A stretch of DNA of 27,087 nucleotides from the NCBI GenBank assembly GCA_031285625.1, contig JAITVV010000028.1, positions 1 to 27,087 on the forward strand, given 5' to 3'. Position 1 is the stretch's first letter; each line of letters begins with the position of its first letter. Shown in pieces: positions 1 through 573 of the stretch. This DNA is from Prevotella sp. GTDB taxonomy: Bacteria > Bacteroidota > Bacteroidia > Bacteroidales > Dysgonomonadaceae. The notes beneath the pieces were generated by a model, which was given only the letters and a program-made list of their open reading frames with translations, did no database searches and had not been told where the DNA came from. The translations under genes were made by a program, and so were the position numbers.

Positions 1-82
1 CAATGTATACTAAATTTAATAATTTGACAAGAGTGAACTCCATTTTTTCGGCTGAAAATTTGGAGGTTAGCTATGTTTTATT

Positions 83-145
83 AGAGAGAGAGAGAGAGAG
101 AGAGAGAGAGAGAGAGAGAGAGAGAGAGAGAGAGAGAGAGAGAGA
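83..145. repeat. Perfect dinucleotide microsatellite (AG)31 plus A
   Basis: Uninterrupted AG units counted from 83 to 144, then A145. Confidence 0.98.
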
Positions 146-382
146 TAACCAGATCACATCTACACTATACTTTACATTCCTATAATAATTTTCATGGAGA
201 TTTTACATGCATACTTTTATATGCTAGTATTTTTACATGCTTACATACGCACATACGCACGATTGTAATTAATAAATTTCAAACAAACAAAATACTTTCA
301 ATTCTTTTCTATAAAAAATTGAAGAGCCACATATCAGAAGTATATTATCTAATATATTCTGATTTGTCATGCAAAATTCCAC

Positions 383-512
383 AAATTCAATGTCTTGAGA
401 AATATGGAGTGTTAAAAAAATACTGCTTGTTGTCTTTAGTATTTATCTTCGATCCATTGTCTTACTTACGGTTTGGGAAAATAGGAAGTGAGAACTTCGA
501 GACATTGAATTT
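383..512 (+). ncRNA. Candidate cis-regulatory structured RNA (three-stem junction), copy 1
   Basis: Closing stem AAATTCAATGTCTTGA (383-398) / TCGAGACATTGAATTT (497-512). Inner stems ATGGA/TCCAT, AAATACTG/TAGTATTT and TCTTACTT/AAGTGAGA. A homologous copy with compensatory changes lies at 2553-2680. Confidence 0.6.
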
Positions 513-573
513 TTATCAGACTTATAAATATCTATAAATATAATCACGAATGCTTAACTAAACTAGAGAAATT

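Follow-up and report, generated by a model that had tools for sequence, protein, structure and literature searches.

A putative phase-variable, translation-dependent attenuator combining an AG-repeat leader peptide and a three-stem RNA element in Dysgonomonas

Frame-shifting repeats within a leader-peptide gene have been described for the pil1 and pil3 loci of Streptococcus gallolyticus, where GCAGA repeats shift the reading frame of the leader peptide, and long leader peptides that stop within or beyond a premature terminator prevent its formation and raise transcription (Danne et al. 2014; PMC3894217). The same paper deals with classical simple-sequence-repeat contingency genes, in which the repeat is located in the 5' coding part of the gene itself or in the promoter spacer, and with attenuation of the trp-operon type, in which the position of the ribosome on a leader open reading frame (ORF) decides the structure adopted by the downstream RNA (PMC3894217). 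Here, these systems are compared with the leader of a secreted-protein gene, gene A, located at the beginning of contig JAITVV010000028.1 from a member of Dysgonomonadaceae; the whole stretch analysed, 27,087 nucleotides (nt) in length, is referred to as the window. This leader contains a small ORF with an (AG)31 microsatellite, followed by a three-stem RNA element, and we propose, with a probability of roughly 0.6, that it functions as a phase-variable, translation-dependent attenuator. In Bacteroidales, stochastic control of surface proteins is known from invertible promoters, in which short inverted repeats flank a segment of 100-200 bp, and, to our knowledge, the leader-peptide repeat mechanism has been experimentally shown so far for a streptococcal pilus only.

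A leader ORF with its own start between promoter and gene, a non-triplet repeat inside this ORF, and stop codons that depend on the frame, as in the pil1 type, are all present here. As in pil1 and pil3, the frame sets whether the stop codon comes well before a premature terminator or falls inside or past it, surface structures are the products of the controlled genes, and more than one locus is present per genome. Unlike the GCAGA repeat of pil1, the repeat of the Dysgonomonas system is the dinucleotide AG, present in 4-45 units, and the N-terminal part of the leader peptide is conserved in its amino acids. Moreover, this genome has seven such loci, with many more spread over 21 of the 35 genomes of the genus, the host belongs to Bacteroidales, the targets include SusC-type TonB-dependent transporters, and the long frame of the window family runs for 370-520 nt through a conserved three-way-junction RNA to the gene start region; whereas pil1 has been experimentally shown, the Dysgonomonas system is known here from sequence alone. 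With contingency genes it shares a slippery repeat that would cause heritable and reversible frame changes at surface-protein genes, but the repeat lies in a separate upstream ORF and the regulated protein is never truncated. As in trp-type attenuation, the position of the ribosome on the leader ORF would govern the downstream structure, but the signal would be the length of the repeat, which is genetic and stochastic, instead of the supply of charged tRNA; an alternative antiterminator pairing as in trp-type attenuation was not found in these leaders. Stochastic control of surface genes is also a feature of the invertible promoters of the same order; unlike these, no inversion was seen here and the pairing of the element behaves as that of an RNA.

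The features of the first leader, copy A, and of its gene are the following:

3..185, + strand: leader ORF of copy A, 60 codons, with the ATG at 3-5 within CAATG and the stop TAA at 183-185.
40..82, + strand: block coding for the conserved peptide ..S-I-F-S-x-E-N-L-x-V-S-x-V-L-L, which contains a supposed hairpin at 43-71.
83..144, + strand: (AG)31 microsatellite, the frame-setting repeat, situated within the leader ORF and read there as (Glu-Arg)n.
85..537, + strand: long alternative frame of copy A and predicted ON frame, stop-to-stop, 150 codons, with the stop TAA at 535-537.
380..517, + strand: three-stem RNA element, copy A, with a predicted fold of -36.6 kcal/mol (z -3.21) and a covariance-model hit.
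553..566, + strand: conserved CTTAACTAAACTAG block, directly 5' of the start codon of gene A.
574..2103, + strand: gene A, encoding a secreted protein of 509 aa with a signal peptide ending in ..A|QVTIG.

The leader ORF of copy A would encode a peptide with the segment ..IFSxENLxVSxVLLE, followed by Glu-Arg repeats from (AG)31, and related loci carry their tracts of AG units at the equivalent place. An in-frame ATG with no stop up to the tract is found in all 42 distinct copies examined. Moreover, an ATG at least 10 codons (median 18) upstream of the conserved Asn codon occurs in this frame in every one of 41 loci, whereas the remaining two frames have it in 3 and 0 of them. The Asn-Leu pair was preset by the search pattern and carries no information on conservation; across 38 loci, the changes in the conserved block are synonymous or conservative, as in coding sequences, with Leu codons TTG (19) and TTA (17), or TTA (26) and CTA (11), Phe codons TTT (32) and TTC (4), Ser codons AGC (18) and AGT (4), and exchanges between Val and Ile. 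Public gene callers annotate such leader peptides as hypothetical proteins, and P0121, P0125, and P0129 have nearly identical N-termini and differ in repeat number and downstream frame.

The pattern of block plus tract is present in 21 of the 35 genomes of the genus, with no hits for the reversed pattern, and among 401 genomes of the order it was found only here and in a single genome from a different genus of the family; the related genomes are kin, and counts across them are not independent. Among the seven loci with leader ORF and tract in this genome, two precede genes of the QVTIG type (copy A on C55, and C10), four precede SusC-type receptors, and one runs off its contig. All eight downstream proteins tested in this and related genomes are of the SusC type (CarbopepD_reg_2 plus Plug), and the remaining downstream genes of leader loci belong to the QVTIG family. 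The device is hence not tied to one gene family, as had been supposed in the original prediction, made from the sequence of the window, since leader ORF and repeat also precede genes for SusC-type transporters.

Some tracts show peculiarities of their own. At G000 C96:15364-15405, an (AG)21 run lies before a SusC-like gene and a terminator hairpin, without leader-peptide block or open leader ORF, and the SusC-like frame downstream is apparently interrupted. An (AC)8 run directly follows the (AG)32 tract at G000 C13:10484-10499, and two bases split the tract at G000 C86:21041-21108 into (AG)14 and (AG)19. Contigs of related genomes start or stop exactly at the AG tract in L061, L062, L065, L072, L100, and L107, thus both these loci and their repeat numbers are likely under-reported in assemblies.

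Downstream of the tract, all three frames were read in the 32 loci with enough clean sequence, each compared with 2000 shuffles (loci L036, L046, L054, L098, L103, and L119 were left out of the frame analyses). A single frame longer than in the shuffles (p <= 0.01) is present in 18 of the 32 loci, and the remaining two frames mostly stop within about 0-100 nt; the median length of the longest frame is 322 nt, versus 65 nt on the reverse complement. In copy A, the frame at 85-537 overlaps the repeat, continues through the entire three-stem element, and stops 36 nt short of the start codon of gene A, an open length that was matched by none of the 2000 shuffles. The ribosome would meet a stop at 183-185 in the assembled frame, at 535-537 in the long frame, and at about 145 in the third, and the long frame joins the leader ORF if the tract gains one AG unit or loses two. 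In loci of the window family, the end of the long frame usually lies 13-44 nt 5' of the main ATG or overlaps with it, often inside a conserved CTTAACTAAAC block, and in two of them it falls into the 3' arm of stem P1 of the element; the CTTAACTAAACTAG block carries the long-frame stop codon in many related loci. Among the copies that bear a tract, 17 of 21 have a sense frame that runs open through the element and back to the tract; among those without tract, 13 of 35 have one, mostly much shorter, and the antisense frame is open in 3 of 21 and 6 of 35, respectively. Since the codon phase of the long frame across the element differs among copies, it is the openness that is conserved and not the peptide of the tail. 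The assembled frame is the longest one in 14 of the 32 loci and another one in the remaining 18.

Of the 16 loci without the element, 14 carry a hairpin followed by a T run, with energies from -13 to -34 kcal/mol and at a distance of 24-156 nt past the tract. In 13 of these 14 hairpin loci, one or more frames reach a stop inside or past the hairpin, and one or more stop at least 28 nt before it. No simple terminator was found in the leaders A and B of the window, where the three-stem element occupies that place. The parts of the element in copy A are:

383-399 with 496-512: outer stem P1.
404-408 with 453-457: stem P2.
418-425 with 437-444: stem P2a.
460-467 with 486-493: stem P3.
471-474 with 479-482: stem P3a, with the cap GGGA at 475-478.
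430-436 and 457-463: TTGTCTT motifs.
3' end of the element: U-rich.

A covariance model built from six copies of this genome detects 12 copies in it and is matched in 18 of the 34 other genomes of the genus, with none in 26 genomes of other genera; likewise, a model from 53 copies finds none, under strict filters, in 149 further genomes belonging to other genera of the order. In the alignment of these 53 copies, 88.8% of the cells are paired, versus 73.8% after shuffling and 33-52% with slid partners, and 37 of 43 pairs change on both sides, counts that are favoured by the fitting of the alignment to the model. On the sense strand, G-U mismatches outnumber A-C mismatches (192 versus 63 overall, and 66 versus 21 in the unambiguous outer stem P1), an excess that fits an RNA made from the sense strand and not a double-stranded DNA repeat. 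The general architecture consists of the outer stem P1 of 17-19 bp, P2, within which the TTGTCT motif occurs one to four times (twice in 33 of 56 copies), and P3 with the cap YUU-GNRA-AAD in 54 of 56 copies (GUGA in 27, GGGA in 15, GCGA in 7, GAGA in 4, and GAAA in 1), and the 3' end is U-rich in 45 of 56. All identified genes on the 3' side of the element are co-directional with it, and a few copies have no identified gene downstream.

A scan against Rfam gave no family at threshold, either in the window at E <= 10 or in 13 related loci at E <= 1, as had been anticipated for the window. The sole match, below threshold, is to RF03043 (Prevotella-2), with 32.4 bits versus a gathering value of 72.1, in one of the 12 copies of this genome (C12). 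This copy shares three features with RF03043 in the same order, namely a segment ..UGUCUU, a hairpin with a GUGA cap, and the 3' end ..GUUGA.U, but the Rfam model lacks the enclosing P1, and true members of Prevotella-2 were matched in none of 151 genomes of the order. The element of about 130 nt is, thus, a genuine three-stem RNA without an Rfam family.

The leaders of the window share their blocks in identical order at 1-573 and 2318-2716, as had been claimed for them. The second unit, including copy B and gene B, and the blocks in common are given below:

2118..2163, + strand: intrinsic terminator of gene A.
2258..2289, + strand: putative promoter of copy B, with TTG about 20 nt upstream of the -7 box TACTTTTG at 2282-2289.
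2301..2311, + strand: AGACAA-type motif, located where transcript B is predicted to begin and complementary to the TTGTCT motifs in the element.
1 and 2318, + strand: CAATGTA in copies A and B.
2320..2343, + strand: decayed leader ORF of copy B, with the ATG at 2320 and a stop at codon 8.
43-71 (A) and ~2363-2390 (B), + strand: block originally taken as a hairpin.
83-144 (A) and ~2403-2480 (B), + strand: AG tract, (AG)31 in A and an interrupted AG-rich stretch in B.
170 (A) and 2516 (B): CTTTACATTCYTATAAT, with 91% identity over 23 nt.
380-517 (A) and 2551-2684 (B): the element of about 130 nt, with 85% identity between A and B; copy B of the three-stem RNA (2551..2684, + strand) also has a fold and a covariance-model hit.
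2717..3946, + strand: gene B, encoding a paralogue of protein A with 409 aa and a signal peptide ending in ..A|QVTVG.
3966-4002: terminator of gene B.

Genes A and B form two monocistronic units, each with its own terminator on the 3' side, and copy B is a separate transcription unit because the intrinsic terminator at 2118..2163 ends gene A. The local identity between proteins A and B is merely 24-27%, thus the leaders are far better conserved than the genes. In this respect the original prediction holds, with 85% identity in the element, but not in regarding the conserved DNA as non-coding, since the small ORF is itself conserved. The CTTTACATTCYTATAAT block (170-192 and 2516-2538) is common to copies A and B alone and was seen neither in C10 nor in related genomes, so that it looks like the trace of a recent common origin and not like a functional module.

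The consensus promoter that had been placed at 2282, with all blocks inside the transcribed leader, agrees with the present data. The -7 consensus of Bacteroides is TAnnTTTG, and TACTTTTG at 2282-2289 presumably represents this motif; 10 related copies have an equivalent TTTG-N19/20-TAnnTTT(G/A), at a distance of 119-162 nt on the 5' side of the AG tract. Since promoter-like boxes sit 5' of the tract and no consistent promoter box was found in the interval between tract and gene of related loci, the entire leader is most likely transcribed. The window begins at a contig end (the assembly comprises 4.84 Mb in 96 contigs), and its first base is the first base of the contig, so the promoter of copy A would lie off the contig. 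The Module-1 block was considered as a promoter and rejected, with a spacing of about 11 nt between TTTG and TA..TTT versus the usual 19-21 nt, and a scan for sigma-70 promoters was set aside as irrelevant to this phylum. Contigs assembled from RNA libraries (two runs of one study) cover parts of the leaders and genes at 203-442, 415-1655, 2151-2526, and 2517-3942; this evidence consists of assembled contigs beyond positions 1-155, which do not show starts, ends, or rare variants, and they may stem in part from carried-over DNA, because the intergenic terminator region is covered at a similar depth.

It is proposed that transcription begins about 35 nt upstream of CAATG and that ribosomes initiate at the ATG contained in CAATG, producing the conserved leader peptide and then Glu-Arg repeats from (AG)n. 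Since the repeat unit is 2 nt, gain or loss of AG units by slippage would shift the ribosome among the three frames. In two of them, the ribosome would stop within a few dozen nt, the downstream RNA would fold, either as a plain terminator hairpin in susC-type loci or as the three-stem element with its U-rich 3' end in the window family, and the gene would be silent. In the third frame, the ribosome would traverse the structure and stop inside or beyond the terminator in susC-type loci, or just before the gene start in the window family, and translation of this long frame would hold the structure open and allow transcription, and probably coupled translation, to continue. When untranslated, the element would fold and block expression, most likely by termination at its U-rich 3' end, or alternatively through Rho-dependent termination on about 390 nt of naked leader or cleavage of P1 by RNase III. 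Copy A is predicted to be OFF, because it is assembled in a short frame with the stop at 183-185. Copy B is interpreted as a decayed switch that keeps promoter and element, since its leader ORF stops at codon 8, its tract is interrupted, and no long open frame remains in it (row L031). We infer translation of the leader ORF, variation of repeat length within a population, and blocking of expression by the untranslated element, and differences in repeat number are seen between loci, genomes, and samples. The earlier proposal of a cis-acting, attenuator-like device before paralogous genes for secreted proteins is supported in this form.

Nevertheless, several observations weigh against this attenuator. 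The longest frame is not significantly long in 14 of the 32 loci; among the loci without element, the earliest stop in L093 is only 23 nt before the hairpin, with no frame stopping at least 28 nt before it, and the scan of L094 and L113 gave only weak and distant hairpins. The element is not a canonical terminator, since about 95 nt and two hairpins separate the arms of P1, and the U-rich 3' end is absent from 11 of 56 copies. Moreover, 35 of the 56 copies have no AG tract within 700 nt, some of them with short flanks, and the element also precedes genes outside the QVTIG family, which we take, by eye from N-terminal sequences, to be KdpD-like, GH3-like, S41-like, and HlyD-like; its presence without tract and before other genes points to a role of its own that the attenuator leaves unexplained. 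The conserved TTGTCTT loops and the GNRA cap also exceed the needs of a structure that is merely melted, and translation-dependent attenuation gives no reason for conservation of the leader peptide at the peptide level. Finally, the ON or OFF state assembled for any single locus may be wrong, because long AG repeats assemble poorly and repeat numbers come from short reads.

In a rival explanation, the three-stem element is a regulatory RNA in its own right, with a protein, a small RNA, or a small ligand as its partner, and it controls the gene whatever the repeat does, with the leader ORF as a separate layer. Strong covariation, the GNRA cap, single-stranded TTGTCTT motifs conserved in one to four places per copy, and the copies without tract or before genes outside the family speak for such an RNA, and so does the distribution of AGACAA, the complement of the loop. 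This motif occurs close to where the transcript is predicted to begin in 14 of 17 leader-ORF loci that bear the element versus none of 17 other leader-ORF loci; as AAGACAA, the exact complement of TTGTCTT, it lies 13-43 nt past the -7 box, just 5' of the leader ATG, and it forms codons 2-3 plus one base of MKTKL genes, with AGACAA at codons 2-3 of many genes of the family. AAGACAA may mark a long-range pairing or a common binding site, although the loci with AGACAA are paralogues and shared descent may account for part of the pattern. A complementary match of 9 nt between TTGTCTTCA and TGAAGACAA in 8 of 38 copies points in the same direction, but pairing of the loop with the start codon region was rejected, as the match is confined to these copies and, where the start region differs, the loop motif has not changed to match it; the output of RNAduplex on loop versus start region was uninformative. 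The junctions also vary in length and sequence, unlike typical ligand pockets, no expression platform was found between element and ATG, and the element is known from one genus only, which leaves an independent RNA unlikely. There is no sign of a small-molecule riboswitch, one of the options that had been named for the device: no Rfam class reaches its threshold, the junctions are variable, and neither a downstream alternative terminator nor a sequestering hairpin was found. The related idea of the original prediction, an untranslated RNA hairpin with the GA tract as variable spacer of a riboswitch or antitermination platform, is largely refuted and very improbable. Both hairpin block and tract do lie within the transcribed leader, and the block pairs in 80% of its cells, above its slid versions; however, shuffled sequences reach 74.4%, changes on both sides are seen in only 4 of 10 pairs, and RNAalifold yields no consensus structure for the block, which is instead leader-peptide coding sequence, with a fixed ATG in 41 of 41 loci and coding-type substitutions. 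The tract is likewise a coding repeat, (Glu-Arg)n, whose length sets the reading frame, and an open stretch specific to one frame after it would be meaningless for a mere spacer.

Equally improbable is a genuine phase-variable protein, of about 170-220 residues and with a Glu-Arg repeat, as the product of the long frame, with separate expression of the downstream gene. In six loci, the assembled ORF begins at the leader ATG, spans 168-217 codons, and stops shortly before the gene, but the codon phase across the element varies, so that only openness is conserved, the tails are of low complexity, with no Pfam family and only repeat-type matches below cut-offs, and those of the susC type are short and end in the terminator. 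The least probable explanation is that the element acts as DNA, either as an invertible promoter, the usual phase switch of Bacteroidales, or as a miniature inverted-repeat transposable element. Inverted repeats of 17-19 bp around about 100 bp, 12 copies in the genome, and contigs that break in or near copies are compatible with it, but none of the 56 copies is flipped, identified downstream genes are co-directional, and the excess of G-U over A-C mismatches on the sense strand is that of an RNA. An inverton was rejected, as neither flipped copies nor strand-change joints were found, the latter in contigs of four runs, which are weak evidence since contigs drop rare variants. The constant orientation, the covarying inner stems, and the GNRA signature of P3 argue against a transposable element as well.

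Several copies of the element are found in unusual arrangements. Tandem co-directional elements at G000 C12:28378-28488 and 28945-29088 (L088 and L089) precede a gene that, from its N-terminus, seems to encode a KdpD-like sensor kinase, and further elements before genes outside the family are located at C29:56729-56862 and in L056, L044, L058, and L037; read in the same way, the genes that follow elements also encode products resembling a GH3 glycosidase, an S41 peptidase (with orthologues in three genomes), and HlyD. The sequences of G000 C42:1-119 and C62:1-119 are identical and comprise the 3' half of an element and a gene start (compare 412-458 of the window). The copy C42b is a mosaic, with a 5' half nearly identical to copy A of the window and a 3' half identical to C62, which suggests recombination between leaders, and such recombination would explain the contig breaks at these sites. 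At G000 C42:200-510, on the minus strand, an element is followed by ATGAAGACAAAAC.. and about 15 codons. These lead directly into the start of a further leader, CAATGTATCACGAATA.., with a second element behind it; apparently, a gene start was cut short and joined to another leader, which hints at cassette-like duplication.

Regarding the proteins, relatives of genes A and B bear Dysgonomonas names at the protein level in a public protein collection, in agreement with the family guessed in the original prediction, and carry the label PF26696; the local libraries of Pfam and NCBIfam gave no match for protein A or B. The predicted model of protein A is all-beta, with a pLDDT of 81.7, and a fold search with it gave no clear match among solved structures, with a query-relative TM-score <=0.2. 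The term adhesin-like, previously applied to these genes, is not borne out by this fold; both products seem to be secreted or surface proteins, and the evidence goes no further.

Searches of the literature on repeats with SusC leaders, on non-coding RNAs of Dysgonomonas, and on Prevotella-2, with supplements outside their scope, returned nothing on this system, and the literature on RbpB and FopS gave no matching GA-binding factor or related small RNA. Thus, nothing in print was found on this system in Dysgonomonas or Bacteroidales, and its novelty rests on these literature searches and on Rfam. In its widest form, for which the odds seem evenly balanced, the proposal is that of a genus-wide set of random switches in Dysgonomonas, in which a (Glu-Arg)n leader with an AG microsatellite would gate many SusC-type transporters and secreted surface proteins locus by locus. 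The gate of the surface family would be a new class of three-way-junction RNA, a ribosome-sensitive terminator that hands the ribosome to the gene start, and this would represent the first repeat-driven phase variation of polysaccharide-uptake genes in Bacteroidales and the first leader-peptide repeat switch with a conserved peptide.

If this is true, gut- and insect-associated Bacteroidales would gain a second route to cell-to-cell diversity beside invertible promoters, with a switch that acts on SusC-type nutrient-uptake genes as well as on surface proteins, so that each cell would carry a random subset of transporters and surface proteins. The state of the switch would be readable as the repeat number modulo three, thus the states of a population could be scored directly in metagenomes. 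The mechanism of one Gram-positive pilus system would also extend to a distant phylum. Moreover, the three-stem element, with its conserved loops, adds a well-supported family of structured RNA that is absent from Rfam.

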